Source: Octopus vulgaris
Taxonomy: Eukaryota
Length of the DNA stretch: 64,000 nucleotides
Assembly (NCBI GenBank): GCA_951406725.2
Contig: OX597815.1
Span: forward strand, 136,400,001-136,464,000
Reading direction: 5' to 3'
Part shown: piece by piece, positions 1-53,181 of the stretch
Position numbering within the stretch: position 1 is the stretch's first letter
How the letters are laid out: every line of letters begins with the position of its first letter
Program-made: the position numbers and the translations under genes
Notes under the pieces: model-generated
The model's database searches: none
What the model was told of the DNA's origin: nothing
What the model saw: the letters and a program-made list of their open reading frames with translations, nothing else

Positions 1-1253
1 GGATCGAAGCAATCAATGCATTAGCTATACCAGTCGTGACTTACAGTTTCAATATTGTTAACTGGTCAATTACTGAAATATGTCAGCTCGACAGAAAAAT
101 AAGGAAACTGTTGACAATGCATAGAATGCACCACCCTAAGGCAGATACAGAACGACTCTATCTGCCAAGAAAAGAGGAGGCCGTGGTCTTTTGCAACTGG
201 CAATAACAATGAAGATTGCTACAATTGGCCTAGACACCTACCTGAAAAACTCTGAGGACTGGATGCTAAAACTTGTCTCAAAACATGAAAACAAGAAAGC
301 ATCATACTCAGTCACAAAACAGGCAAAGGAATATCTAAGTGAATTCCGAATACAACCAATTTCGGAGATAGATATACAAGAAACAAGCACAGAAAAAGCT
401 AGGCGCATGAAAAGCCGTGCCAAAACTGCGGCCTTAGATATTCTGAATAATAAATGGCAAGAAAAACCTCTCTATGGCAAATACCCAAAGAGAGCGAATA
501 ATGCAGATATCGACAAAGCCCTAACCCATCAATGGCTAATGGCCTCTGGCTTAAAATCTGAAACAGAGGGGTTTATCATAGCAGCTCAAGATCAATGCCT
601 ACCAACAAGAAACTACCAGGCCAACATATTAAAGATCAGAAGCAGTCCAACGTGTCGTGTATGCAAGCAACAAAATGAAACCATTGACCATGTGGTCTCC
701 AAGTGCAGTCTTCTAGCGCCTACAGAGTATCTCAACAGGCACGATAGAGCTGCACAATATATTCACTGGGTAATCTGTAAAAACCTGGATTTGCCCCATG
801 AAAAAAACTGGTGGGAACACAAACCACCCCCAGTGCTTGAAAATGACCACATCTCACTCCTCTGGAACTTCACCATTCAAACTGACAGGAAGATAGATGC
901 AAATAGGCCAGACATCATATTGAAAAACTTCAAACAAAGAACATGCCTCCTCATTGATATGACTGTCCCAATCGATATAAACGTATCTGTCAAGACCTAC
1001 CAAAAACTGAGCAAATATAAAGATCTTGAAATAGAAATCAGCAAAATGTGGAAGCTGAAGACTAAAACAATACCTGTTGTCATAGGTGCCCTGGGAATGA
1101 TAGCAAAAGGGGCTGATAGCTACCTAACTCAGATACCAGGAAACCCAAAAATGGCAGAAGTTCAAAAGATAGTGCTCATGGGAACTGCTCATATCCTACG
1201 CAAAATACTCTCTATGTAATCTCAAGGTTTAAAACAAACATAATTTTCGGTTT

Positions 1254-1284
<31 letters not shown>

Positions 1285-1449
1285 TTTTTTTTTCTTTTTA
1301 GACATTCATTAGTACAACATCCCCACCCCCCAAATATATGGCACACTAGGCATAACAACAACATGAACTTCCAACCCTGTTGTCTCTTGAGGTCTCTGGG
1401 TGAGACTTGGAGCCAACTTGTACAAATATAAAGCAAAAGTCAAACATAG
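1..1449 (+). mobile_element. R4/Dong-like RLE non-LTR retrotransposon, 3' part (runs off window start)
   Basis: ORF 191-1219 has WQEKPLYG, CCHC knuckle CRVCKQQNETIDHVVSKC, RHD and RPDII..IDMTVP..KLSKY (PD-(D/E)xK endonuclease); upstream frame encodes HHPKAD.RLYLPR; 3' UTR ends in (TAA)n. Confidence 0.9.
191..1219 (+). CDS. C-terminal part of R4/Dong ORF (zinc knuckle + restriction-like endonuclease)
   Basis: Open 342-aa frame with CCHC, RHD and PD..D..K motifs; frameshift near 180 separates it from upstream sequence. Confidence 0.8.
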   Translation: MQLAITMKIATIGLDTYLKNSEDWMLKLVSKHENKKASYSVTKQAKEYLSEFRIQPISEIDIQETSTEKARRMKSRAKTAALDILNNKWQEKPLYGKYPKRANNADIDKALTHQWLMASGLKSETEGFIIAAQDQCLPTRNYQANILKIRSSPTCRVCKQQNETIDHVVSKCSLLAPTEYLNRHDRAAQYIHWVICKNLDLPHEKNWWEHKPPPVLENDHISLLWNFTIQTDRKIDANRPDIILKNFKQRTCLLIDMTVPIDINVSVKTYQKLSKYKDLEIEISKMWKLKTKTIPVVIGALGMIAKGADSYLTQIPGNPKMAEVQKIVLMGTAHILRKILSM

Positions 1450-1471
1450 AATAATAATAATAATAATAATG

Positions 1472-1535
<64 letters not shown>
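1450..1535 (+). repeat. (TAA)n microsatellite: tail of first element and target of second
   Basis: Direct reading. Confidence 0.97.
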
Positions 1536-4054
1536 GAGGATCAAACGCACCCAAGATGAGTGGATCAAACGCACCCAAGATGATTACAAAAATTTACAAG
1601 AACAGGTATGGGAAGACATCTCAATCGCCGATCTAAGGAGAGCACTAACGAAGTGGAAATCCCCTGGTATTGATAGAGTACCAAATTTCTAGCTCTCATC
1701 ACTCTCGTCCGCACACAAAATGTTAGTAATACTATTTAATAGTATTATGAAAGACCCGAAAAAAAACACCACATTGGATGGCAAATGGTATTACTTACCT
1801 CCTCCCCAAAAATAACAAAACGAAAGACCCAAAAAACTATCAGCCTATAACATGTTTATCTACTACCTATAAGATCTTGACATCTATTGTAGAGAAAACA
1901 TATACGTTTATGGAAGAGAATAACCTCTTTCCCACTGAACAAAAAGGATGCAGACGAGGCTCATACGGATGCAAAGATCAGCTCCTAATTAATCGCATGA
2001 TCCTTGAGAACTGCCATAACAAGCGCAGAAATCTCAGCTCTTCATGGATTGATTATAAAAAAGCCTTTGACAGCATACCACATTCGTGGATTCTGAAATC
2101 GCTGGACATTTTCAAAATTTCTCCTATGATTTCAGATTTTTTAAAGTATAATATGTCACTATAGAACATGAAGCACCAATTATATCATCCTAATGGAGTA
2201 TTGCACTCAAACAACATTAGCATAAACTGTGGAATTTTCCAAGGTGACTCACTTTCACCACTAATATTCTGCATAGCACTAATACCACTCACAAGTGAAC
2301 TGAATAGAACAGGATATGGCTACAAAATTGACAACAAGAAAATAAGCCATCTATTTTATATGGATGACCTAAAGCTATATGGCAAGGATGATGAAGAGCT
2401 TGAAGGATTATCACATACTGTGAAAGGATTCAGTGATGATATCGGGATGGAGTTTGGCCTTGAAAAGTGTGCCAAAGCCACTTTTAAGAAAGGGAAATTG
2501 GTAAAGTCTAGTTCAATCGAATTAGATGTCGAAATAGTAATAAAGGAACTTGAGCAGGAACAGACCTATAAATACCTAGGAATAAATGAAGGCTCTGGTA
2601 TCCAGCATGCAAGCATGAAAGAGAAGGTTAGGAAAAAATGTTATAGAAGAGTTCGAGCAGTCCTGAAGTCTGAGCTGAATGCATATAATAAGGTTTTAGC
2701 CATAAATTCCTTAGCAGTACCAGTTGTTCTTTATAGCTTCAGTAGCAACTGGAATACTAGTGAAATAATGAAAATTGACAGGAAAATCCGCAAGCTACTG
2801 ACTTGTAATAAGATGCACCATCCAAAGGTAGACGTGGATCGCCTTTACCTTCCCAGAGCTCAGGGAAGTCGAGGTTTGATCCAGCTTGAACTCACATACA
2901 AAACCACCACAATTGGACTGGCCAAATACCTTGAAGCAACCGACGATTGGATGCTAAAACTTGTTGAAAAACATGAAAGACCTAAAAAACTTCACTCTAT
3001 TCTCAAAGAGAGCAAAAAATTCGCAGGTGATCTCTTAGATACCCACCAGATTGAGCAGGCTGAAGGAAATGCGCCAACTGCAGCTGCAAAGAAAATAAAA
3101 TTAATTGCAAAGACAAAAGCACATGAAAATTTAGCTAGCAGATGGGAACAGAAACCTCTCCATGGCAAGTATGTGGCCCGTAGCAAACAAGCTGATGTCG
3201 ACCAGAAACACACGCACCAATGGTTACGAAGTTCAGGGCTAAAAGCAGAGAGTGAAGGTTTCATATTAGCTGCTCAAGACCAAAGCTTATTTACCCGGAA
3301 CTACCAAGCCAATGTGATAAAAAATGGAGCTGACCCAAAATGCTGATTCTGTAACGATGAGATTGAAACAATAGACCACATAATCTCAGGGTGTAGAGTC
3401 TTAGCACCTGCAGAATATAAAGCAAGACATGACAGAGTCGGCCAGTATTTACACTGGACAATATGTCGGCATATGGTATAAATATCATCCTGAAGCTGTG
3501 ACTGAGGGAGAAAATGTGTCGATTCTATGGGACTTCCCCGTGCAGACCGACATGACTATAAAAGCCAATAAACCGGATATCATTATAAAAGATCAGACAA
3601 AACGGATGTGTTTATTAATTGACATGAGTATTCTCTGTGATCACCATATAGCGGCGAAAGAATTTGACAAGATTAGTAAATATAAAGACCTGCTAATAGA
3701 AATTGAAAAAAATGTGTCATCTCAAGGCGACTACAGTACCAGTGATTGTATGATCTCTAGGAATGATAAAAAAAAAAAGGCAATGAAACCTATTTGAAAA
3801 TGATTCCAGGCTTACCATCCCTACAGGAAGTGCAAAAAATCGTATTAATTGGAACGGCTCATGTACTGAGAAGAGCGCTATCGCTGTGAAAATAACATTC
3901 ATCCATGAATTTATTTATTAATTTTTAAATACATATTTTATATGTGAATTTGCGCGTGTAATCTGGGAATGCATACAATGCCCTTCTCTGCCCTAGGTGT
4001 ATGGAAAACACTCGGCGAGAAACGGAAGAAAATTTGAAGAAAGAAGGAAAAAAC

Positions 4055-8827: not shown

Positions 8828-10742
8828 ATCCCTCAAGGTCGAGGATGATGGTCTTCGCGCAAATTTACTGGTGAGTCCGTAGGTGACTGATAAGACCAAT
8901 TCTTGCTTGAAAAGATCGGTCGCAGTGCGGACATCCAGTGCCGGAAGGGAGAGTCGCACGTGGTTGTTGTTGGCGCTCCTTCCGTCGTCGTCTTTTCTCC
9001 TCCAGCTCTGCAGACCTTTTCGACCCGAAAGTCACCGTTCCCTCATGGATGGTGGTTTTCCAGAGTGGTCTGTTTTTTGCCGTTTCCTCCCAGTTAGTGA
9101 AGTCGATGTCACACTTTTTGAGGTTCGTTTTCAGGGAGTCCTTGTAGCGTTTCTTCTGGCCTCCTTTTGTACGCTTGCCGTCTTTGAGTTGGGAGTAGAA
9201 GATCTGTTTGGGAAGTCGTTCGTCAGTCATTCTAACCACGTGGCCGCTCCATCTTAGTTGGCCTTTGATGACATAGGCTTCGATGCTGGTCATTTTTGCT
9301 TCTTGTAGCACGCTGACGTTAGTTCTTCTGTCTTCCCAGCTGATGTTAAGGATCTTCAGAAGATAGCGTTGGTGAAATTTCTCGAGCGTTTTCAGGTGGT
9401 GACTATACGGGGTCCAGGTTTCGGGTGCGTAAAGGAGGGTTGGAATAATGACTGCCCTGTATACCATGAGTTTGGTTTCGGTTCGGATGTCCCGATCAGC
9501 AAAAACTCTTGTTCGAAGCTTGCCGAAAGCTGTTCCTGCACACTTTAGACGGTGTTGGATTTCATCGCTGAGGTCTACCTTTGCTGACAGATGGCTCCCA
9601 AGGTAGCAGAAATGGTTCACATTTTCCAGAGGAATTCCTTCGAGTTGAATCGATAGCGGGTTGTCAACACGGGCATTGGGAGGAGGTTGGTAGAGTAAGT
9701 GAGTCTTCTTGATGTTGATGCTCAGTCCAAGTTTAGTATATGCATGATGAAAGACATTTAGGATCTGTTGGAGGTGATCCCCTCTGTAAGCTGCTACACT
9801 GTTGTCGTCGGCATATTGGAACACTAGCAAGCTTCGCGTCATTGTCTTTGACGTACTTTTGAGGCGAGCGAGGTTGAAAAGCTTGCCGTCCATTCTGTAC
9901 GAGATCTCGATGCCAGGTGGAAGGTCATCTAGTATGATGTGCAACACTGTCGCAATAAAGATGGTAAAGAGAGTTGGCGTCGGTCTGGACTCTGGCGTGC
10001 ATATTGTCGTGGAGGAGTTTCAGGATCCGGATGAACTTATCTGGGCATCCATACTGGGCGAGAGTATCCCAGAGGAGCTCTCACGAGACACGATCAAAGG
10101 CTTTGGATAGGTCGGTAAAGGCCAAATAGAGCGGTTAGTGTTGCTCACGACATTTTTCTTGTAGCTGTCGCAGCGTGAGGATCATGTCGGTTGTGATCCG
10201 TGATGGCCTAAAGCCGGTCTGCGTCTCAGGAAGGATCCTCTCTGTCAGCGTTTTGAGGCGGTTGTTCAGGATCCGTGTAAGAATCTTCCCAGCAGTTGCT
10301 AATAAGGAAATACCCTGTAATTTCCACAGTCAGAATGATCGTCCTTTCGTTTGTAAATGGTAATGATGTTTGCATCCCTGAAGTCGGATGGTACAACTTC
10401 ATTTGTCCAGATTTTGACCAAGAGTTGGTGGAGCTGGTGTTGGACAAAATCACCTCCCAGTTTGTAGATCTCAGCTGGGATTCCGTCAGGACCCGCGGCT
10501 TTGTTGTTCTTCATCGCTGTGATAGCAATTTTGACCTCTTCGAGGGATGGAATTCGAGCGAGAGAGTAATCTTTGGCCTCTTTAGGAATCATGTCAAGTA
10601 TGCTTTTGTCGATGGTAGCCTTGTGATTGAGGAGGTCATCGAAGTGCTCTCTCCATCTGTCTCCTATTTCGGTGTTGCTTTTCAGGATGGTCGCTCCGTC
10701 TTTACTCTTCAGAGGAGCCTGTCCATGTGTGGAAGGTCCGCA
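8821..10742 (-). mobile_element. RTE-clade LINE, 5'-truncated with internal deletions
   Basis: ORF 8865-9947 has FQYADD, FCYLGS, QLRWSGHVVRM..RLPKQIFY and terminal CPHC..H zinc finger; 10299-10592 has KAAGPDGIPAEIYK; 3' end abuts (TA)n. Confidence 0.93.
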
Positions 10743-15625: not shown

Positions 15626-18337
15626 TGATTTTGATTTTGATTTTGATTTTTCCAGTTTCAGCTCATGAGCTGTGGCCATGCTGGGGCACCGCCATTTGGT
15701 TTGCTACATGATTTTGCCTCACAAATGCTTTTTAGCAACTGCCATTTGGTGCATGAGAGAGTTCGATGCAGCTGCCCTCATCTGCACCTCCTGCCGTGAA
15801 GTTGGTTCATCCGGGACACCTGACAGGAAGAGATCCAGTCCTACTTTAAAGACATCCGCATCTACACCATGCAGGTCCCTCAGGTTCTTCGGGAGGATAT
15901 TGAAGAGCTGTGGGCCTCTTGAAGCCCAGGCTATCACAGTATCTTGTCCTACATCTTGATGGCAAATTTGGAGTCCTTGGTACCACGCAGTGGCGCCCGG
16001 TTCTGGCATTTGTGTGACTCTCGATGCCAAAGTTTGGGACAAGTCCTTCCAGGATCTTCCAGATGTATATTATGGCATATCTTTCTCGCCTACGCTCCAA
16101 GGAATAGAGTTTTAATCTCTTGAGTCTTTCCCAGTAGCTTATGTGCTGCACAGAGGCTATCTTCTTCGTGTAGCTTCGTTGGATCGCCTCAAGTTCTGTG
16201 ATCAACTTGACACTGGATGGTGACCATAGATGAGAGCAATAGTCAAAGTGGCTTAGGACAAGTGTCTTCCAGAGGACCATCATGGTTTCTTGTTCTCTTG
16301 TTCTAAAGGTTCTAAGAATCCATCCGGCCAGCCGTCTACATTTCATTGCCAGTTTAGCAACATGTACATGAAAGGTCGCGTCATCACTCATGTGAATACC
16401 CAGGTCACGCACTGATTGTGCCTCTGGGATTGAAATCCCTCCGGGTCCAGTGTATTCATTGGGTATTGCATTCAGTTTTGCATGCTGATAGCATAAAGCT
16501 TAAAACTTTTCAGCATTGAACTACATGCTATTCTTTTCAGCCCACTTGTATATTTTGTCCAGCTCACATTGCAGGTGCTTAGTGTCTTCAGGGTTCTGTA
16601 TTGCCTGTGAAACTTTTGTATCATCTGCATAACTTGTGATCGTGGCTCTCTGCGTGGCTGAGGGCATGTCTGAGAGGGCCATTATGAACAGTAGTGGTCC
16701 CAAAACAGTGCCCTGCGGAACACCGCTCACTATTTGCGTGTTAATGGAAGTGGCCCCATTGGCTACTACCACCTGGCTTCTATTCTTCAGAAAGTCATGA
16801 AGCCATTCTCCCAATTTTCCAACTATGCCAAGATCACGCAGTTTGTGACATATCATTCCATGATCGACTTTATCAAAGGCTTTTGCAAAGTCGAGATATA
16901 TCACTTCCACATTTGAGTGGTTGAGCAGTCGTTTCAGCACCCAGTCATAGTGTTGTAGGAGCTGAGTTAAGCAGCTTCTTCCTGGTCGGAAACCATGTTG
17001 GGTGTCAGACAGCAAGTTATTTTCTTCAAGGAAGGCGATTTTTTTCCTTCTGACTATTCGTTCCATGACCTTGCTGATGTGTGAGGTCAGAGAGATAGGT
17101 CTGTAGTTCTTGGCCTCCGCTCTGCTACCTCCTTTATGAATAGGGCATATTTTACCTTCCTTCAGTTTTCTTGGAAGTTTGCCAGTTGCAAGGAAGCTCT
17201 GAAAGAGAGACTGCAGTGGTCTTGCTAGGACTCTCTTACATACTTTTAGAAGGATTGCCGGGAATCCATCGGGGCCAGTAGCTGAGTTTGTTTTCATCTC
17301 ATCTATAGCCTTTATTACATCGTCTTCCTTTATATTGATGTAATCAATCATCGCCGCCTCAGACCCCATATCTGCAGTGGTGAAGAAGTCAGTTGGATTG
17401 CTGATTTGGAAATGCCCAAGGGGTGGGGTGGAAACACTCTTGAATTGCTCATTTAGTATTTCACTTACCCTCATTGGATTTCCTGTGAGTGTGCCATCCC
17501 TTTCAAGGAGTGGCCCTATCCTACAGTGAACCGTAGCTGTTTCTTTGGCATACCTGTAGAAAGCTCTGGGATTAGATTTTATGTTGTCTATAGCCCAGGC
17601 TTCTTTGTCTGCTCTTTCCTTTTCATGGGAGAGTTGCAGACCTTTTTCAATTTCCAACAGTTTCATTTTCAGGCGGGACTTTTCACTGCTTTCAATTTGT
17701 TTGTTTAGGCGATTTGAAATTTTTGTACGCCGTCTCATTAGAATTTTCCTCTCTCTGGAGATTTTGTTCTTGTGTACAGTGGCCTTTCTCTCTGGGACAC
17801 ATTTGTAGCATATGGCTTGCATTACAGACATGAATTGTTGAAGTTTCACGTCGATGTCTGGCGAGGAGAGACACTCAGGCCAGTTTTGTTTAAGGATTAC
17901 TTTCTCAATTTGTTTCCAGTTTGCCTTATGGAAGTTCAAGCTGGAAAGATTCTGAGGATTTCTTGTAGGCTGCATGTCTATGCTTTCCTTTGGCCCGTAC
18001 ATGGTCAGCTCTACCATGTTGTGATCCGAGAGTAGTGTCGGTGTCACTTTCACATTATGGATGAGATCCATATTATTTGTGAAGCAGAGATCCAGTGTGT
18101 TACCTGCCCTGGTTGGTTGGAGTATTACTTGCTCCATGTACAGGGTGTTGATGAGGTTCAGGAGGGACCTCGCCTGTCCTCGTTCACATCTTGTCATTCC
18201 TAGGAGAGAAAGGCCCTCGGGCCATCTGACATTGGGTAGATTGAAGTCTCCCATAAGAAGTACACTTATGTGTTGTTCTAATGTGATTAGAACTTCTATT
18301 TTTATAAGGCAGTCTTCAAACTTGCCTACATGGCTTG
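15626..18337 (-). mobile_element. CR1/L2-group LINE, 5'-truncated within the APE endonuclease
   Basis: ORF 16521-18254 has MGDFNLP, GNTLDL, NYRPISLTS, QHGFR, YLDFAKAFDKV, GVPQGTVLGP, YADD; continues in 15846-16412 and 15719-15930; (AAAATC)n tail. Confidence 0.93.
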
Positions 18338-18341
18338 TATA

Positions 18342-18379
<38 letters not shown>

Positions 18380-18614
18380 TATATGTTCATATATATATAT
18401 ATAGCAATAATAATTCTCTAAAAGAGATATAGACAGTAACTGCTCGATAACATAAGGGACTAAAGCCATCTGAATATGGCTAGGGACAGGGCAGGGTGGT
18501 GGGGGTGTTACTGTTGCATTTAGCCCCAGGCGAACATCGACGTCACCAGAAAGGCCCAACACCGTCACGGTGTCCTTAACCTGCAAAGGGAGGTAATTCC
18601 CCGATGAAGCGGAA

Positions 18615-18666
18615 ACCACACACGGACCATGGTTTCAAGGTGTATTGCCTATCGTCGGCGTGTGGT
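18615..18666 (-). ncRNA. Type I hammerhead-like ribozyme motif, copy 1 (variant core CCGACGA)
   Basis: Minus strand: cacacg CCGACGA u agg caauaca ccu u GAAA ccaug GUC cgugug; 6-bp stem I, palindromic stem III ACCAUGGU. Confidence 0.7.
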
Positions 18667-18973
18667 AGGCTTCCGCTTCCTCGACGAATTCTCACTCTGC
18701 AGGATATTCATATATAGATTTTCAAGCAAAATACATTTGCTGATTTCGAAAATCTGTTCGAAAGCAATAATAATTCTCTAAAAGAGATATAGACAGTAAC
18801 TGCTCGATAACATAAGGGACTAAAGCCATCTGAATATGGCTAGGGACAGGGCAGGGTGGTGGGGGTGTTACTGTTGCATTTAACCCCAGGCGAACATCGA
18901 CGTCACCAGAAAGGCCCGACACCGTCACGGTGTCCTTAACCTGCAAGGGAGGTAATTCCCCGATGAAGCGGAA

Positions 18974-19025
18974 ACCACACACGGACCATGGTTTCAAGGT
19001 GTATTGCCTATCGTCGGCGTGTGGT
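18974..19025 (-). ncRNA. Hammerhead-like motif, copy 2
   Basis: Same sequence as copy 1, 359 bp downstream. Confidence 0.7.
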
Positions 19026-19500
19026 AGGCTTCCGCTTCCTCGACGAATTCTCACTCTGCAGGATATTCATATATAGATTTTCAAGCAAAATACATTTGCT
19101 GATTTCGAAAATATGTTCGAAAGCAATAATAATTCTCTAAAAGAGATATAGACAGTAACTGCTCGATAACATAAGGGAGGTCCGTGTGTGGTTTCCGCTT
19201 CATCGGGGAATTACCTCCCTTTGCAGGTTAAGGACACCGTGACGGTGTCGGGCCTTTCTGGTGACGTCGATGTTCGCCTGGGGCTAAATGCAACAGTAAC
19301 ACCCCCACCACCCTGCCCTGTCCCTAGCCATATTCAGATGGCTTTAGTCCCTTATGTTATCGAGCAGTTACTGTCTATATCTCTTTTAGAGAATTATTAT
19401 TGCTTTCGAACATATTTTCGAAATCAGCAAATGTATTTTGCTTGAAAATCTATATATGAATATCCCGCAGAGTGAGAATTCGTCGAGGAAGCGGAAGCCT

Positions 19501-19552
19501 ACCACACGCCGACGATAGTCAATACACCTTGAAACCATGGTCCGTGTGTGGT
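19501..19552 (+). ncRNA. Hammerhead-like motif, copy 3 (inverted arm); predicted cleavage after 19542
   Basis: accacacg ccgacga tagtcaatacacctt gaaa ccatg gtc cgtgtgtggt; one stem II substitution (agt vs agg). Confidence 0.65.
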
Positions 19553-19717
19553 TTCCGCTTCATCGGGGAATTACCTCCCTTTGCAGGTTAAGGACACCGT
19601 GACGGTGTCGGGCCTTTCTGGTGACGTCGATGTTCGCCTGGGGCTAAATGCAACAGTAACACCCCCACCACCCCTGCCCTGTCCCTAGCCATATTCAGAT
19701 GGCTTTAGTCCCTTATG

Positions 19718-19755
<38 letters not shown>

Positions 19756-19886
19756 GACAATAGTGGCACAACAAGGCACTACTGGTTTCTGGAAATAACA
19801 GTCGTTAACTGTATGACGCTATGTAAAGCTTCACTGAATTTATAGAGGCAACGTTATGTGCAGGCGGCAATAATATTTATAATCTT

Positions 19887-20040
<154 letters not shown>

Positions 20041-20042
<2 letters not shown>

Positions 20043-21125
20043 TGTGTGAGTTAGAGGTTGAGAAACCAACTGAGGGATAGTACCTATCCAATAAACTGCA
20101 GGTAGCGTACCTAATTTTTCATAGCCAAGTGTTAGTTTTTGCGTGGCAATCTTGCAATTGAGTGTTATATACGAGTGGGGGTAAAAGTTGATTTAAACGG
20201 CAAATAAGGAAGGGGATAGGATACAGAATGGACAGACTTCAGCAGGTAAACATTCCAGAATGTCTATTTAGTCCAATGTATTAGAATGTATTAGATGAAT
20301 ACAAGCACATATATTAGTAGTACAGCATACCAAATATAAAGAGTTGGTAATTGCATATAATCATATGGGAACAGATGATTGAATGAGTACACGAGCAAAT
20401 GAGCAGATTGTTAGTAGGTGCATTACGGACCAATACCTTCAAACCCATCACTGAATTTCTATGTAAACATGTGAACTACTGCTTAAAATTATCCTTCCTG
20501 AAGAAACCCATTTCTGAGAACGAACTTATTCACCTATTCACCATTGGATGAAATAATATGGATCTGATAATATATATATATATAGTATGTATATATATAT
20601 TTCCCCTTGCTATATAATCATTATGCTAAGATGTACATCACCCACATCCTCATGTTTGTTCTTGTTCTTACTCATATTCTTTTTCTACTTTTTTTTTAAA
20701 GACAAACACACTGTAGCTATTATTAACTGTTTTTATATGTGTTAGCACTGTCAACCACTTAAACTCGCTGAAGAAGTCTGGAGGCACATTCATTATCCAA
20801 GTCATACATGTTCATCCCTACATAACTCTCAACATATGGAGACAACCTGGAAGATTTCGTTGCCTCTTGGCAAAAACGGGCGTAAGGAACTAGCACCTAC
20901 TGACAATTTGCTCATTTGCTCATGTACTCATTCAATCACCTGTTCCTATATGATTATATGCTTCCACATTCTTGTTCTTGCAATTACCAACTCTTTATAT
21001 TTGATATGCTGTACTACTAATAAATGTGTTTGTATCCATCTAACAAATTCCAATAGACATACTGGAATGTTTACCGGCTGATGTCTGTCCATTTTGTATT
21101 CTATCCTCTCCACCTTTTAAATGCC
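20041..21125. mobile_element. Inverted-repeat insert (arms ~20212-20421 and ~20893-21108) with degenerate hammerhead-like pieces; probable Penelope pLTR remnant
   Basis: gagcaaatgagcagattgttagtaggtgc pairs with gcacctactgacaatttgctcatttgctc; CTGAAGA at ~20498 and ~20768. Confidence 0.65.
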
Positions 21126-24889: not shown

Positions 24890-27800
24890 CTACAGGATCA
24901 TGCTCAAAATGGTTTCGTTACTAGCACGCACCATCTTTGCAACATTCACCCATCTTTTATTGAATCTTTCGCGAGACAAAACTTCCCTCTCCATTCTCAC
25001 CTTCCTTTTCAAGTGGTACTTGAAAAAGTTGATGAGCGAATGGCCAGAGAGGTAAGTGTTTGTCTCTAATCCTTTCGCTCGAGTCCACCACACACATTCT
25101 TTCACCATGGCCACCAGTACGATGAAAACTGCCTTGCCTTCCCGGTTGAGGGAAGGGGGCGGAGCAATTCTCACGATAGACTCGGCCGATAGGCGGATTC
25201 GTCCCACACGTGACAGCAGCCGTTCGGCATAAGCCCACAGGTCGGAAATGGTTGGACATTGCACGAGTGCGTGCAGAACGGTTTCGTCGCTCTGACCGCA
25301 TCTCGGGCAAGTCGGTCCAGTGTGTCTGGAACCGTGTCTGTAGAGCTTATCCCGAACAGGTAATGCTTCTCGATAGCACTGCCAGGCCAGGGATCTTTGG
25401 TGATTGTTCATAGGTCCCGGCCCGAAAGTTGTCCTGAACAGGCGGGTCAGGTGTTCCTCGTCGACGCCCAGACTCTGCCCGAGTTCGTCGTCGCACCTCC
25501 CCTCCACTAATCCTCTATAGAATGCCTTTGTTGTGATGGAGTCGCACAAGTTCGATCCCGGACGGCAGAGTTGCTTGAGAGCAACGCGACACTCACGGTG
25601 CCATTCGCCTAGCCTCGGTCTCTGCTTGATCCATGACTGTAGTTCGTCCAAGGAGACGAGCTGCGGGAAAGCGCGCCGCACAAAAGGCGACCACCCCTGT
25701 TCACCGTTGTCTATGAAGCGCCGGAGATGTCGCAGTCTCAGCGCATGTCTGCGCATCATCAACCACGGCATGCCCAGCCCTCCATTTAGCGGGTGTTGGC
25801 AGCAAATGGATCGCCTGACCATCGGAACGTTTCCCTTCCACAAGAAGCGGAAGAGTATGCGTTCCAGTTTGGTGATGGTAGGGTCGGGACAAGGCACGAC
25901 GGTCAGACGGTACTCGATGACGGATGCGATGTACGCGTTCGCCACCTCCGCCCGACCTTTTAGGGATAGCTTTCTCTCAGTCCATTTCTGGGTGAGAGTA
26001 GCCACCCTAGTCGTTATCTCGCCCCAGTTCTTCTCCATTTGGAGGTCCGGACCGAACCAGACCCCGAGCAATTTAACCGGTCCGTCCGTCCAGCGTCCCA
26101 CGATGGAGACGCTGTTGGACGGCATGGGCTTGCTTCTCCAGGTGCCGAGCCGCAAGCCCACTGACTTTTCCCGGTTAATTTTTGCTCCCGTTACCGCTTC
26201 GTATTCTTTCAGTGTCTCGCCGACCAGCTCGATGTGCTCGTAGCTCGACACTATGACGGTGACGTCATCCGCGTATGCAGACACGCTCCTCCCGCATCCC
26301 AGCTCTCGTGGGATGCCCCTCAGCGTCGCCAGTTTCCGCAGTAGTGGCTCAAGAGTCAGTACATACAGCAGCGATGAGAGGGGGCATCCTTGACGAACCG
26401 AACGCATGATGTTAAAAGGTCTGGATAGATGACCATTTACGCGAACTACTGAGCGGATGCCGCTGTATAAGGCAGCGATCCAACTGCGGAAAACTGGACC
26501 GAAACCAGCCGCTTTGAGGACAGCCTCCAAGTAGTGATGGTCTACCCTATCGAAGGCTTTTGATTGATCCAAATTGATCAGCGCCCCACCCATGCCAGGA
26601 TTTTTAACTACCCTGTCTATGATGTAGCGCATCAGATGGAGGTTGTCATGAATACTTCTACCCGGCACGGCGCATGTTTGCGCCTTGTCGATTAGTTTCT
26701 TGATGACAAGCGCCAATCTCTCGGCTAACACCTTGGCCAAAATTTTCAAATCTGCGTTGAGCAGAGTGATGGGCCTGAAATTATCTATGACGTCCCCCTT
26801 GTTTGGGTCTTTCTTGATCAGTGCCACTGCTCCTCGCTTTACAAAAGCAGGAATACTCCCGTTCTGCTGCCAGTTGCAGTAGACAGCTGCCAAGACGCCT
26901 CCAAACAAGTCTGGCATATGAAAATAAAATTCGTAGGGCAGACCATCCAAGCCTGGTGACTTGTCTCTCGCGCAGCCTACCATCGCATCCTGTACGTCCG
27001 CAGCTGTGATAGGCTTTTCACAAGACTCCACCTCCCTTGCTGAGAGTCGTGGCAAGGCATGCAGGTAGGCACTAAAGTCCACTCTGCTTTCTGACTCACC
27101 ACTTGTCCCAAACAGTTGGGTGAAGTGTTGTTGAAAAACCCCACACATCCTTTTAGGCTCGAGTAATTCGCGCCCCTGTTCATCTATAAGAGACTTGATG
27201 GTGGCTCTGTTGCCTCGTTGCGTCTCCACCACTCGGGCCTCTTGGGCGGCTCCAACTCCTTCGTTCCTCAGAGCACGCATCCTAGCTCTGACAACGCATC
27301 CCTCGTGTTTGGCGTTGAGGTGTTGGTCGAGGGCCAATCTCGCCGCCAGTACGTTGGACGCGATGCCAGTTCTAAGTGCCTCTTCTAAAACCTTAACTAA
27401 TTCTCCCTCTACTCTATTTCGGTCTAATGCTAGGGCTCTACTGTATCTGACTGATTCTGCTTTAATCGCTTTTTTTAGGGAATACCACCATCTGTTGTTG
27501 ATGATGGTACCCGTCAAAGCTCTCTTAACTAATGTGCTGATCCGGTCCCTGTAAACCTGTCGTGCTGTAAAAGACGCGTTCAGTTTCCAGTAACCAGGAC
27601 CCTGCCTATGTGTCTTATCTAAGTCAAGTGTACAAGTCACAAACTTGTGATCTGTGTAACTGACTATATGAAATTGTGGACAACCTACACTATTTTTATC
27701 TATTGTCCTACAGAATACTCTATCTAAGTATGATCTGGACGACCCGATGCGGTTACTCCATGTCCACATTGGCACATTCGGGTGGTCCAGTCGGTACCTG

Positions 27801-28326
27801 TCAGACAGTTGGAAACGTCTGAGCAGGTCTTTGAGGCATTTGCATCCCCTTCTATTGCTATCTCTGCCCACGTAGTCTAGATGCGTGTCCAGGGTGGCAT
27901 TCCAATCCCCCACTAAAAGTAAAGGACGAGACGTTCCCATGAAAGACTCTAGACGTCGAAAGAAATCTGGTCGGCCTGTTAAGGACGGAGCATAAACTGC
28001 TATCAGTCGAAAAGCACACTCATTGCTGCCATCGACATCCAAAACGACCAGCCTACCCTCCGGGTCTAGGAAATTTGCTCTTACTTTGAGATCCAGACTC
28101 TTCCGATAAGCACCGCGGTGCCACCTCCGCCCATTCTCGGTAGACACGGAGAAAAATAAATGTTGAAATGTGTACCGAAAATGTGCTGGAGTGCCCGCAA
28201 GCTGTGGAGTCTGGTCTCACTGATGGCTATGATATTCAGATTTAGTGACTTGATGTCATTTAACAGGTAGCCTTGTTTCCAAGGCGACCCCAAGCCACGT
28301 ACATTTATACTACCTATTCTGAGCAT
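24890..28326 (-). CDS. Tx1 ORF2 (APE endonuclease + reverse transcriptase + zinc knuckle), one frameshift near 28108
   Basis: IGSINVRGL, ISETR, GTAVL | VYAPS, VGDWNA, YLDRVF, TDH; KSPGLDGL, FRPITLLNAD, DQSKAFDRV, VRQGCPLS, YADD; CPRC..ETVLHALVQC. Confidence 0.92.
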
Positions 28327-28368
28327 GTTCCGATAAAAGTGCAAAAAAGGAAAAGGAGAGAGAAAAGG

Positions 28369-30504
28369 TTACTTGTTTTCCGAAAGTTCTTTGTCTTTCA
28401 CCTCACGGTCTTCTTCTATGAGGCTTTTATACAGTTTTTTTGATGAGTACTTTTGAAATCTCCCTACTGCATCAGGGTAAAGAGATTTCAGGGTGCTGTA
28501 TGTGTTCTGTGTCACGTGTATTATTTTAATGTGTTGTGGTGGTGTTGTGTGTGGGTGGTTACTTGTTTTTATGTCGTTTTCAGTAATGTTAGTGTTTGAC
28601 CTAATGTGTTCCATTAGGTCGTGGTTGTTTGTGTTTATGGCTGTCAACATTTTTGGGGGGTTTGATGATGGTGTGTTTGTGTTGATGTGTGTGTTTTCTG
28701 TGGATGTTTTTGTTTCGGGAGTGGTGTATCTTCCCGCTTTGTTTGTTATTTTTTCTTTTCTTTTTTTCCCCTTTTTCTTCTCCCCCTGTGGCTATTTGCC
28801 AATCTTCCGTGTCTTCTTCGTCTAATGACAGATCAGACGAATCGGAGTCTGGAAGAGGGAAAGTATTGGGGTCTATTGTCGACTGTGTTGGTTTTGTTGT
28901 TGGTGTTGGTTGGTGAGCGTTTGGTTGTGGTGTGTGCGGTTTTGGATGTGGGGTTTGGGTATTTTGTGTTTGAGTGATTGTGGGTATTGTTGTGTTGTTT
29001 AGGGTCTCAATTTTGTGGGGATTTGGAGTTGTAATTGTTTCTTCATTTATGCTGGGTGTCTTTTTGGCAGATGTCCTTGGTTTGGGAGTTGGTATATTCT
29101 TGGTTGTTGTTGTTGGTGATGCTGCTTCTGTTCTTGGTGCTGCAGTTGGTGTGGTTGTTTGTTTGGTGAGGTTTGTTCCTGCAAAAAGTGGTGTGGGTAG
29201 TAGACCTTGTTTATTTGTTTTTGTTTCCGGCTGCTGTTGTTTTCTTGCGGCAGATTTGCAGTCTTTTTTGAGATGTTGCTCACTGCCGCATATGTAGCAA
29301 CGTGGTCTTCTGCCATCGACGACCACATATAACTTGTGGTCGTCTGATACACATATCTGGGTGGGTATTTTTTTTATATCTTCATGATGTATATGTAGAA
29401 GAAATTCTATTTTCTTTCCCACCCAGTTTTTATGCTCTGTGACTGTGGTTTCCAAAATAGTATAATTCGCCATTTTTATGCATAAAGCCTTTACAAGCCA
29501 TAGACTATTGGCTATTTTGGGGACATTGTTTAGAGTGATCTTAGTCACTTTCTGTCCCCGATAGCTTGGTGTAAGTTGGAGTTCATCTGAGTGAAGAGTT
29601 AGCGTTGAGAAATGTCTAGCTAACTCTTCGGTGTAGAAAACGACTTGTATGTGGGCAAATTTGTTCCACCAGGTTACATATTCTTTGTGATCCCAGATGG
29701 GTTTCAGGCACTTCTCTATTTTGCCTGTGTTGGCCTTCTCTGGGATTTTTGTTTTTTTGTTAACTATTTTATAAATGATTGTTCGTCTTTTTTCTATTTT
29801 CCAAAATATCTTCTGGTATGTTAATTTTTACGATACCTTCTGATTCTGTTATTTTGATGTTCGTGTCCTGTAATTGTTGAGCCGTAAAGTATATTGTTGT
29901 TTTTTTTCTTTAATCGCCTCAGCGAAATTTGTTGTTGTTTTGTTATTGTTGTTGCTTGTGGTGATGTTGTTGGCTGCAGTTTGTAAAATTGGTGTGTTAG
30001 GTTCGATCGTGCAAGTAGGAAGGGTGGAAAATTGCCTGCGTACTTTAGTCCTGCACTAGGGCAAAATTCGACATTTCGTTTGCTTGTCGTCGTTATTTTT
30101 TCACTTGTTGGTGATGGAGTGAGCAGTGGTTGAAGGGAGTTGTTGTTGTCGTCGTTGTTGTTGTTGTTATTGTCGTTCTTGGTGACGGCTGTGGTGTTGG
30201 TAGTATTTGTAGCATTGACGGCACGGTCTTTGGTGGCGGTGATGGTGATGTTGGTGTTGTTATTGGTGGCAATATCTTTAGTAGGGATAGCAGTTTTAGT
30301 AGCAGATTCTGCCATGGTGTTGGTGGTGGTGGTGGACTCACTGATGGTGTTGACGGTGCTTGGCCTTGCGACCTTTGTTTTGTATTTGTTGCTGTTGGTG
30401 GTGGTGGAGTTGTCAGGTTCGGCGTATGCTAACAGAGCATCCTGTTTTTCTGTTTCTCCGTCACGCTTGACTTGCAACTCAGCCTCGTGGTGGTCAGTGG
30501 CCAT
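28369..30504 (-). pseudogene. Tx1 ORF1 (gag-like, CCHC zinc knuckle, Thr/Asn/Pro-rich linkers), frameshifted
   Basis: ATG in caaaATGG at 30504; segments 30504-29880, ~29750-28601 (RCYICGSEQHLKKDC) and 28650-28369. Confidence 0.8.
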
Positions 30505-30728
30505 TTTGGAAATAAAATGGCTAAATGAAACCACGAAGGCTATGAGAATTTTTTTTTAAATTTTGCCCACAAGGGGCAAAATTTTGTGTCGATATTTATC
30601 AAAGGTTTACAGTGGATGTTGTTGTACAACTTTTAAGCAAAAAATGTTTGTCAATATACACTTTTAAATAGTCAAAATAAATGATTACCTTCGGAGCCGA
30701 AACGACATCACATCCGTCAGTCAGAGAT

Positions 30729-37312: not shown

Positions 37313-38285
37313 GTCAAGACAAGAGCGCGATTCGATTGTAAGATATTTTATTAGTTGAACGTTATTTCAACAGTATGTTTGTCTTTGTCAAGTTCGAAAT
37401 ATGAAGTGATAAAAATTCAAAATTTCAGAAATTTAAACGTAAAGTATGAACGAGAGCAACCAGCATCCACACGTTGATGGAATGACATCATCAATGTTTA
37501 AGTCACAATTTTATAACAGGCGAAAAGAAAAAGATAGAAAAGAAAAAAACAGAAAAAAGAAGATGACAGAAAAAAGGAAAGAAAAAGAGAGAAAAAAGAC
37601 AATTTAGTCAAACAGTTTTTTATAAATTTGATAATATTCTCCTGTCATCTTATTCATTCCGCCAGGGCGTGATGTTAATAAACCGCAAACATATTTCTCC
37701 TCATACATTCTGAAAAAGTGAAAGTGAAGCAGATTCAGAATATTTTCTGAGAATATGCACTTTCAAGTCTTCTTCGAAATTGCAGCTGCTTGAAACGAAA
37801 TGTTCAGCAAGTTCTGTCGAACTACTGTTATTGTGCCTGACGTCGAATCTGCGCCCATGAAACCTTTCCTTTAATTGTTCTGTTGTGCAACCAACATAAA
37901 TTAATTTGTGTTTCGAGCATTCTGCAGCGTACACCAAGTGGGAATCTTTACATGTTTCACCTTCTGTATAAATCATAACATTTCTGTTATGATTTCTGAT
38001 GGAATTCAATTCACTCACGTTGTTACACAATGTTCAGGGATTACCTCTCTTGCGGCTTTTCTTTAAGGTACAGCGTGTAGATACGCCAATGTTCGTTTTC
38101 TTGGAGTCAGATATAGAGGCCAATAATTCTCTTATATTCTTATTCCGTCTAAAGGCTACAATACGCGGCTGAGGAAATATCTGTTTGAAATGAGGATATT
38201 GTTTCGCTACATGCTGGTAACCTTCATGCAACACTTTTGAAATGTTAGCGAAATGCTCAGAACTGTTATAAGTTGCGGTGATATG
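37313..38285 (-). mobile_element. Penelope-like element 3' fragment (GIY-YIG + putative pLTR)
   Basis: PRIVAFRRNKNIRELL linker; TCKDSHLVYAAECSKHKLIYVGCT..LKERF..ELAEHF. Confidence 0.85.
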
Positions 38286-38289
38286 ATCA

Positions 38290-38845
38290 GTGAGCGAAAG
38301 TGCTACATTGGAAATGTGCGAAAAATGGAGCTAGAGAGAGATAATACGTGGTATGAGCACAAATCGCAGAGAGTGGTGGAATAGGAGACTAGCAAAATCC
38401 TCTGGGATTTACCAATCGAAACAGATTAGTTGCTAGAACATAAAAGATCGAACCTAGTTATGGTGGAAGGCGCATCGCACATGCTATATTGTTAATGTTG
38501 TATGTCCCTTTGACCCACGAAAATCTGGAAGGAAGGCGAAAAGATAGACAAATACAACCCTGATAAGTGCGAAATAGCCCGGCTATGGAAAATGAAGACG
38601 GTGAAGATAGGGAAAATTATTGTAGGATCCTTGGGAACAGTATCAGAAGACCTCAAAGGGAATTTAAATTAAAATGCAATAGAGTACCTAGTAGAACTGT
38701 TACAAAAGGTTTGCTTCCTAGGCTAGAATAATCAGGAAGGTATTAAATAAATGAAAAGAACGGATAACATGGTATTGAAGGCTGCAGGCAGCAAATCCGC
38801 TACGCTTGCAACACTCCAGGAGCGTCAACTAAATGTGATAAAGAG
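38290..38845 (+). mobile_element. R4/Dong-like RLE fragment with (TAA)n tail (38846-38992)
   Basis: WYEHK..CKILWDLPIETD..CYIVNVVCPFD..IVGSLG. Confidence 0.75.
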
Positions 38846-46869: not shown

Positions 46870-48445
46870 AAAAAGCAGTACTCTCTCACTTTCCACAGGT
46901 TCCCCACTTCAAAGCTCCCTCTTAATTCTCTCATACTTCACTCGCTCCCTCTCAAACCTTGAACAAGTATCATACACTATCTTTCTCCACCCATCACGGT
47001 CTTGTGCTTTCCTCTCCCAATTACCAACTACAATTCCTGTCTGTATTAGAGCATTTGTAAAGCAATACTTAAACCTTAGTTTAGGCTTAAGCGCTGGTCT
47101 CTTGCTATCTTCCAACTCACCATACAATAGCTGCTTTGGGAGTCGCTCTTCACTCATCCTTACCAAATGTCCCTCACCCTCATTTCAAATGTCTTTGCAA
47201 AATCATTGGCTTTATACTCCTACTACCACTCCTCCCATGCACCTCCACCTTACTAATGACTATTTTCCAATTTATCCACAAAATTTTTCTCAGATGAAAT
47301 CGTTTGAATTGCCTTACATGCCTACGGTAAACAACCCATGCCTCACATCCATATAGCAAAGATGTAGGACGCATGTGTTATATACCTTAACTTTGATATT
47401 TGAAGATATATTATGTTGTTTCCGCACACGCCTATCAAGCCTACCAAAGCACTACTAGCCCTACTGATTTTGTATGAAATTTCATCATCAAAACCAGCAA
47501 TGCTCAAGGTACTTCCTAAATAAACAAATCTAGGTACAGTGTCCAACCTTTAACCATTCACAGTTATAAAAGATTCCATATACATCTTGGAGGGAACAGT
47601 CTCGTACATTATAACAGTTTTTTAGATTGATTGCTGCGCATGCTGCAGAAATCGCTTTTACCATGTGCTGCATATTCTGAAAATGTGCCAACATGTCACA
47701 ATCATCTGCATACAGAAACTCAACAAGGTGAGTCTTTTGAGATTGAAAAGATTTCCCGTTGTCCTCTATCTTATATAGACCTCTTCAGAGCAATCTTTTA
47801 AAGCTATTAGAAAGACTATTGAGAAATATATAGCGCACAGTGTAGGAGCAGGAATATCAACTTGCTTTACACCATTTTCTACAGAAATTAGACCTGATAA
47901 GGTCCCTCCAACATTAACTCACTTCCATCTTTTCATGAAATTTTCTAAGCATTCTCACAATTGTTACAGGGCATTCTAGCTTTTTTAGGATCTTCCAGAG
48001 TGCAATTCTATTGATAGAATCAAACGCTTTCGTTAGGTCAATGAAAATCTGGTACAAAATCATGTCCTTTTCGATGCGCTTCTCTTGCAACTGTCTAGCC
48101 GAAAATATCATATCCATAGTACTTCTAATATCCCTAAACCCACATTGCGATTCTGGTAGAACCTCTTCAGCAATGTGCAGAAGCATTCTAGCAACAGCTA
48201 ACAGAGAGATGCCACGTTAATTATCACAGACGGCCTTTCCACATTTAGATTTATATAGTATCTCCATAGTTGCATCAGACCAATCCGTAGGAACCCCTTC
48301 ACTTTGCCAAACCCTCTGAATCACATCCGTCAACATTGCACAAAGATGATCACCACCATATTTATATACCTCTGCACCTAGTCTATCCATACCAGGAGCC
48401 TTTCCATTGTTCAACTTCCTGATTGCTGCTTTTATTTCAGCCATG
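46870..48445 (-). mobile_element. Degraded RTE LINE
   Basis: NGKAPGMD, LPESQCGFR..RSTMDMIFSARQLQEK, IDLTKAFDS, FLYADDC, VRMSEERLPKQLLYGEL. Confidence 0.9.
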
Positions 48446-52734: not shown

Positions 52735-53015
<281 letters not shown>

Positions 53016-53181
53016 ATACTACAAAATTAGAAAATGGAGAAACATACTTAAATCAATCAAACATCAACCATCAGATGATACCCAATCAATACTTTATTAC
53101 ACCATTACATAACAGCAAAGGCATTATACAAAATATATTGTAAATATAATTAGACAAGGAAATAGAAATATAAAATATAAA

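Follow-up and report, generated by a model that had tools for sequence, protein, structure and literature searches.

The closest described systems are the animal non-LTR retrozymes, such as those of mussel (350-390 bp) and the axolotl HHR_Amex2 (350 bp) (Cervera & de la Pena 2020, PMC7229834). Their dependence on Penelope-like elements (PLEs) was proposed in the main text of that paper, and the hypothesis is repeated in PMC7761336. The available text of a preprint argues, from co-occurrence and homology to PLE pseudo-LTRs (pLTRs), that retrozymes are non-autonomous PLE derivatives (Li, Clavereau, Pollet, bioRxiv 10.64898/2026.07.22.740005). For Penelope-like insertions themselves, the text of PMC8557442 (Craig et al. 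2021) lists partial tandems, a 5'-truncated copy that sits inverted at the 5' end, a 30-40-bp tail on one side and a bias towards microsatellites. The available text of PMC12602865, on killifish Neptune, contains nothing bearing on the retrozyme question.

The window, i.e. the whole stretch of 64,000 nucleotides of Octopus vulgaris DNA that was analysed, carries at 18403-19721 an insertion of 1,319 bp with 3.7 copies of a unit of 359-360 nt (98.7-99.6% identity), divided into arms of 776 and 543 nt (Table 1). The original prediction had described some 3.7 near-identical copies of a non-coding, GC-richer unit of about 360 nt inserted in (TA)n, and this stands: (TA)n tracts lie on both sides, the GC content of the unit is 46%, the longest ATG-started frame at the locus has 50 aa and the longest stop-free stretch, in the left arm, 114 aa. 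The hairpins it had listed are all present in the sequence. Its description of the element as multimeric holds for 18403-19178, the only place in the window where Tandem Repeats Finder reported unit copies (2.2 in tandem); the remainder is inverted, and this head-to-head inversion had gone unstated. Self-comparison of the window sequence identified 19179-19721 as the reverse complement of the left-arm unit, so that the locus is not a single tandem array: the two arms meet at their 5' ends, and the 3' end of each lies against (TA)n. Unit positions are counted from the first base past the GUC triplet (position 1). In this numbering the 3' end of the left arm (18403) is a long end, at unit position 222, and that of the right arm (19721) a short end, at position 178. 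No internal region between units was found in the retrozyme insertions.

Table 1 The insertion at 18403-19721 and its flanks, in window coordinates
Feature	Position	Strand	Remarks
(TA)n tract, left flank, target site	18345..18402	.	TRF 18345-18403, period 2
Left arm, 776 nt, unit positions 166-360, 1-360, 1-222	18403..19178	-	Self-comparison
44-nt tail, unit positions 179-222, predicted hairpin with its base at the two fixed ends	18403..18446	-	Long end only
Type I hammerhead motif 1, core to GUC, stem I ~18599-18684	18625..18658	-	Predicted cut after 18625
Type I hammerhead motif 2, 359 nt from motif 1	18984..19017	-	Predicted cut after 18984
5'-to-5' inversion junction	19178..19179	.	Right arm begins 4 nt upstream of predicted cleavage site
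Right arm, 543 nt, unit positions 357-360, 1-360, 1-178	19179..19721	+	Self-comparison
Complete monomer, cleavage site to cleavage site, 360 nt, reference unit	19183..19542	+	
Type I hammerhead motif 3, private G>T at 19519 breaking a stem II pair	19509..19542	+	Predicted cut after 19542
(TA)n tract, right flank	19722..19752	.	TRF 19719-19752

By its sequence, the insertion is to be placed in a new, young family of animal non-LTR retrozymes, a class that is itself known. As in the animal non-LTR retrozymes of PMC7229834, the non-coding tandem unit falls within 150-450 bp, has a GC content below 50%, runs head-to-tail in each arm and bears one type I hammerhead with a short palindromic stem III; a U.U at the base of stem II and a stem III of 2 bp are shared with axolotl HHR_Amex2. 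Unlike those elements as described in that paper, the young subfamilies here have a U4C core. The family also differs from the retrozymes in the main text of PMC7229834 in that its arms are inverted head-to-head, its 3' ends are fixed at two positions and its target is (TA)n.

Other repeats lie elsewhere in the window. On the minus strand, a fragment of a LINE of the APE-RT type (16521-18386; Pfam Exo_endo_phos_2, RVT_1) ends with its 5' part at the left TA tract, and a near-complete LINE (24890-30555) has a frame of 1,108 codons with endonuclease, RT and zf-RVT, preceded by another frame that weakly matches a zinc knuckle. Broken LINE-type RT fragments are found at 140-3797 (plus), 8865-10019 (minus) and 47914-48216 (minus). 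Between TA tracts at 52800-53018, a 90-bp unit is repeated 2.4 times with 94% matches.

The motif CCGACGA-stem II-GAAA-CCAUG-GUC, which the original prediction had read as hammerhead-like, occurs three times in the insertion, twice in succession on the minus strand and once on the plus strand. Its layout is that of a type I hammerhead: stem I is long, stem II has 3 bp and a closing U.U, and stem III, of 2 bp, lies within the palindrome ACCAUGGU. The monomer folds with z = -4.97 (0 of 100 shuffles equally stable), and each ribozyme region with z of about -5 (0 of 200 shuffles). Since an Rfam scan of 17000-21000 returned no hammerhead family at E<=1, only miRNA matches driven by (TA)n, the ribozyme call is based on manual structure and covariation. 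Among subfamilies and sister families loop 3 reads CAUG, CUAG, UAUA, UCGA, UGCA, CGCG or UGCG, every one of them self-pairing, and double changes retain this palindrome and the stems among families that are about 62-80% identical. Dimeric cleavage needs a palindromic helix III, as a self-pairing loop 3 would supply (PMC4209133, available text). The double changes thus point to selection on dimer cleavage, at least formerly, and imply that a predicted hammerhead ribozyme has been kept under selection. The covariation score was 0.173 against 0.110, a value reached by none of 500 shuffles (14 distinct motifs; 93.5% of cells pair), with the caveat that related sequences can exceed shuffles even without structure; in the same test, the pair-count and pair-type measures did not exceed shuffles (360/500 and 500/500).

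The core differs between subfamilies of the 360-nt family, being U4C (CCGA) in the young ones and UUGA in an older one; a compensating U3-A8 core is present in relatives. According to the available text of PMC3088659, U4C considerably reduces in vitro cleavage in a viroid while infectivity is still allowed, and eight of nine Xenopus retrozyme dimers in the preprint text lacked in vitro cleavage (bioRxiv 2026.07.22.740005). By analogy, U4C together with the U.U at stem II would count against activity of the predicted ribozyme in the young subfamilies. The plus-arm motif of the window insertion bears a further stem II change, at 19519, which would also speak against its activity.

A genome search with the monomer returned 877 first-look candidates, and in the best 40, which were scored, full units were mostly 98-100% identical. 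The exact short end followed by TA was found at 535 sites and the exact long end followed by TA at 441, with reversed-pattern controls at 0. The genome therefore holds at least 535 insertions of the 360-nt family; the extrapolated figure is about 675, derived from contig C1, where 46 short-end and 37 long-end matches represent 58 insertions in a census that overlooks insertions having neither exact end. The young, dispersed retrozyme-type family that had been predicted is thus present, and the unit is far from confined to a single locus. In total 80 loci were read, namely the window and 39 top matches, not selected by their ends, and then 40 picked by end patterns. Arms longer than one unit numbered 85 of 146, and 41 of 146 exceeded two units; the largest insertion has 23 units (L174) and another 16 (L186). 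The youngest subfamily, at L174 (G000:C1:161876430-161884765), L158, L179 and L189, has the longest and most uniform arrays, with 0-0.08% between arms, and is a candidate for the present source of insertions.

At least three sister retrozyme families exist in the same genome (L117-L132, L133-L144 and L130:23-77), with homologous units, identities of about 62-80% in aligned stretches, inverted pairs and homologous ends. Sister family B gave 147 exact motif matches at a spacing of about 355 nt, sister family C has 3,124 first-look candidates and a U3-A8 core, and sister family D is represented by one copy. An additional hammerhead-like motif was seen in L140 near 2046.

The genome-wide search that the original prediction had proposed as a check showed dispersed copies with variable 5' ends, as expected there, and with 3' ends fixed at unit positions 178 and 222. 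Among the 40 loci picked by unit similarity and not by ends, 32 are inverted; of their 72 3' ends, 56 coincide exactly with position 178 or 222, and 64 fall within (TA)n. On contig C1, 49 of 58 insertions are inverted (25 paired by end orientation, 10 of these read, plus 24 of the remaining 33, read), and no close end pairs in any other orientation were found there. Across 84 insertions, 5' ends are scattered and arm junctions mostly show an overlap of 0-5 nt; of the 60 inverted insertions that are complete, 53 pair a short end with a long one, leaving a 44-nt tail, and either arm can have either kind of end. As in known retrozymes, the family is dispersed over many loci and has a target duplication above 4 bp where visible: L065, outside a TA tract, has one of 12-13 bp, the sole clear case among 78 examined, the others being mostly masked by (TA)n. 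Neither poly(A) nor a tail repeat is present on the retrozyme insertions.

All the features of Penelope-like insertions listed in the text of PMC8557442 were found in the 360-nt family, the tail of 44 nt being slightly over 30-40. This anatomy is, on the level of sequence, independent structural support for Penelope-type mobilisation of the retrozyme copies, which appears better founded than when it was first suggested for this locus, and the PLE-style ends of individual insertions indicate repeated retrotransposition. Partial tandems, an inverted 5'-truncated copy, a one-end tail and a (TA)n bias are shared with EN+ PLEs of the Neptune and Naiad clades (PMC8557442); unlike these, the family has no ORF, the 360-nt unit being the whole element, and a tail of 44 rather than 30-40 nt. 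Non-autonomous Chlamys elements such as MRC1, in the same text, are also non-coding, PLE-dependent (here proposed) and inserted as multicopy head-to-tail arrays, but they resemble their partner at the 3' end and mostly lack canonical hammerheads, whereas the 360-nt unit has a hammerhead and no detectable 3' similarity to two live Neptunes. In the literature covered, consisting of main texts and few subscription papers, we found no retrozyme described as having inverted arms, a fixed pair of ends or a preference for (TA)n targets; this insertion signature is apparently new.

Two young families of autonomous elements in the genome encode an RT with a C-terminal GIY-YIG domain and a CX4CxxC linker; since this linker matches the one described in PMC8557442, we label them Neptune-type, as Neptune-A and Neptune-B. 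Neptune-A is extremely young and has a unit of 4,271 nt with a 775-aa RT+GIY-YIG ORF (L105:3149-7419, G000 C5, and many other loci). All 150 scored matches were 100% identical over 213 aa of the GIY-YIG region, corresponding to at least 150 copies, and most of 15 loci read have inverted arms and, bordering on (TA)n, two fixed ends that differ by 26-46 nt; the unit was also found as partial tandems. Neptune-B (L215:481-5272, G000 C5; L219, L221, L222) has an intact ORF of 781 aa, 47% identical to that of Neptune-A, a 35-nt tail and (TA)n flanks. Co-occurrence with autonomous PLEs, here with intact ORFs, is shared with the animal non-LTR retrozymes of PMC7229834. At two loci (L060, L155) Neptune-A and a retrozyme copy lie in a common TA tract.

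Several further observations concern these elements. Upstream in Neptune-A is an open frame of 454 codons without Pfam match (ESM Atlas best score 0.84, unnamed clusters), and the corresponding frame of Neptune-B has 479 codons. The 3' UTR of Neptune-A contains a minimal hammerhead-like motif, also with U4C and U.U at stem II, whose folding (z 0.43) is in itself unsupportive. Four of 10 Neptune-B loci read start at one identical base, inside stem III of a hammerhead-like motif, suggesting that the 5' end of the Neptune-B RNA is set by ribozyme cleavage.

The 360-nt unit has no sequence homology to Neptune-A (best E 0.03) and no match inside Neptune-B, nor is there significant similarity to the 3' end of either; because of this, the Neptune partner is assigned by anatomy and age alone. 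The GIY-YIG remnants of the window had originally been put forward as candidate partners, and this did not hold up. The degenerate Neptune-like remnant at approximately 37701-38330 (minus; Pfam E 0.0026, below cut-off) belongs to an old and abundant family with 6,196 first-look candidates and a best non-self match of 86% aa; among 150 scored members there was no full-length ORF, the longest open frame having 400 aa. As its family is old and lacks a longer frame in this set, the remnant is ruled out as the current partner, live candidates being present elsewhere in the genome. Relatives of the remnant bear a minimal hammerhead of their own, with U3-A8.

The PLE dependence proposed here, and the dispersal from monomers to multimers, are in line with the retrozymes of Li, Clavereau and Pollet, and the 360-nt unit compares with means of about 310-360 bp per class in several animal groups in that text. 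The model favoured there is one of local tandem expansion from a leftover pLTR; unlike it, the present family has no homology to live PLEs and has PLE-style ends at each insertion.

On balance, we consider it somewhat probable that RNA of this non-LTR retrozyme is copied into (TA)n in trans by the RT-endonuclease of an active Neptune-type PLE, likely from a ligated circular monomer. The observations behind this are the unit, its motif, its dispersal, the (TA)n flanks, the two fixed 3' ends, the inverted arms, multimers of up to 23 units and the intact Neptune-type ORFs in elements of like anatomy. Arrays would be transcribed from a putative promoter; two hammerheads would pair via their palindromic stem III/loop 3, and cleavage after GUC would release the 360-nt monomer, which a host ligase may then circularise. 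RtcB is reported to circularise axolotl and mussel retrozymes in vitro (PMC7229834, main text). The GIY-YIG nuclease would nick both (TA)n strands, and the two DNA 3' ends would prime at positions 178 and 222, on the flanks of one predicted hairpin. Each cDNA would proceed a variable distance round the template and past the ribozyme site; its truncated 5' end would then be joined to that of the other cDNA with little or no microhomology. A bolder version, less likely than not in our judgement and offered tentatively, sees the insertions as fossils of rolling-circle reverse transcription: the Neptune RT would prime both nicked (TA)n strands at the two hairpin-flanking sites of a 360-nt ribozyme circle and run up to 15 rounds per arm, recognising the RNA by structure without homology.

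Several data sets bear on the nature of the template. Both fixed ends lie at the base of one predicted hairpin (unit positions 179-222), with pair probabilities of 0.58-0.88 in the minus-arm monomer and only about 0.4 in the plus-arm monomer; it also folds in the three sister-family copies examined. In a post hoc count, 32 of 146 5' ends fall at positions 31-60, against 9-12 in adjacent bins, and these positions form the foot of a predicted rod (pairs 2-45 with 282-327), which an RT would run into there. Taken with the predicted fold, the ends at the hairpin base and the pile-up of 5' ends would fit an RNA template. Of the 146 5' ends, 14 are no more than 10 nt away from the cleavage site (uncorrected p = 0.03), and some templates could accordingly have been linear. 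Arms of the same insertion are 0.50% apart as against 2.6% to other loci, and are closer in 50 of 51 loci. This similarity is mostly that of the subfamily, because only 1 of 27 multi-unit inverted insertions has a private variant that all units of the two arms share, and 4 of 27 are mosaics, the comparison being a weak test specific to circles. In three of four sequencing runs (three studies) one contig of 390-391 nt corresponds to exactly one unit plus 30 nt, the length expected from a closed loop in the 31-mer graph whether the source is a circle or a tandem array, and the contigs carry neither strand nor level. No contig in the four runs spans the inversion junction, which carries no weight either way, and none of the listed runs containing the unit is an RNA run.

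The copying of a circle competes with a rather unlikely but substantial alternative, in which a non-autonomous, Penelope-dependent element is reverse-transcribed either from read-through transcripts of existing arrays that stay linear and uncut, or from one monomer after another by template jumping, with the ribozyme slow or idle in the young subfamilies and the circle unnecessary. It gains from the U4C plus U.U core of those subfamilies, the balance of mosaics and private variants just given, the long arrays at L174 and L186 as possible sources, and the partial tandems of the far longer Neptune-A unit. Against it stand the double changes in loop 3 and the stems, with the past selection on dimer cleavage that they imply, the arms of 15 nearly identical units at L174, which differ from each other by 0.06% and come most simply from a single monomer, and the accumulation of known animal retrozymes, including the 350-390-nt mussel ones, as circles (PMC7229834, main text). 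That the unit is just the pLTR of a coding Penelope element was a counter-explanation named in the original prediction; in the form weighed here, the unit would be the pseudo-LTR or 3' end of such an element, with the arrays as truncated copies of it. The anatomy is the same as in Penelope insertions, and Xenopus retrozymes resemble pLTRs in the preprint text (bioRxiv 2026.07.22.740005). In the 80 loci read of about 675, however, no arm continues into an RT/GIY-YIG ORF or other coding sequence, so the unit is not a pseudo-LTR; 85 of 146 arms pass through a whole unit back into the unit, and the Neptune fragments in 5 of 79 loci scanned (L035, L040, L060, L155, L181) are all separate from it or across a TA tract. 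The 3' UTRs of Neptune-A, Neptune-B and 30 further GIY-YIG loci likewise showed nothing homologous to the unit, except for one separate retrozyme fragment in L150. We regard this explanation as very improbable; an ancestral origin of the unit from a pLTR is still conceivable.

L1 twin priming also yields arms joined 5'-to-5', and LINE RT and APE remnants are common in the window, one of them adjoining the left TA tract. A SINE-like RNA moved by a LINE of the APE type, with inversion by L1-style twin priming, is nevertheless highly unlikely: poly(A) and tail repeats are absent, the second arm begins at a fixed 178 or 222 and not near the inversion point, the ends are interchangeable between arms, and the two-end pattern is also found in Neptune elements. 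Least credible of all is a satellite spread at the DNA level, or an assembly artefact at (TA)n tracts. Unequal exchange after insertion can make long arrays and mosaics, but what argues otherwise is the presence of copies at hundreds of dispersed sites, where 3' ends are fixed while 5' ends and junctions vary, together with the strand-specific conservation of the ribozyme and the one target duplication at L065. The unit is also present in independent sequencing runs, one of them under another organism label and with 4 differences in 390 nt.

The enzyme that moves animal retrozymes has been the subject of a standing hypothesis based on co-occurrence, a ribozyme type in common and pLTR homology (PMC7229834, main text; bioRxiv 2026.07.22.740005, available text). 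Hundreds of young retrozyme sites here bear the insertion marks of two live Neptune-type elements of the same genome, which is independent structural evidence. The class of element being known, the family is of value as a good test system, not as an element of a new kind. Its minimal substrate of 360 nt and the intact ORFs suit the in vitro system that the text of PMC8557442 names as the next task for PLE inversions, tails and microsatellite bias. If the rolling-circle reading is true, this genome would supply a live enzyme-substrate pair for retrozyme mobilisation and for the origin of the Penelope tail and inversion.
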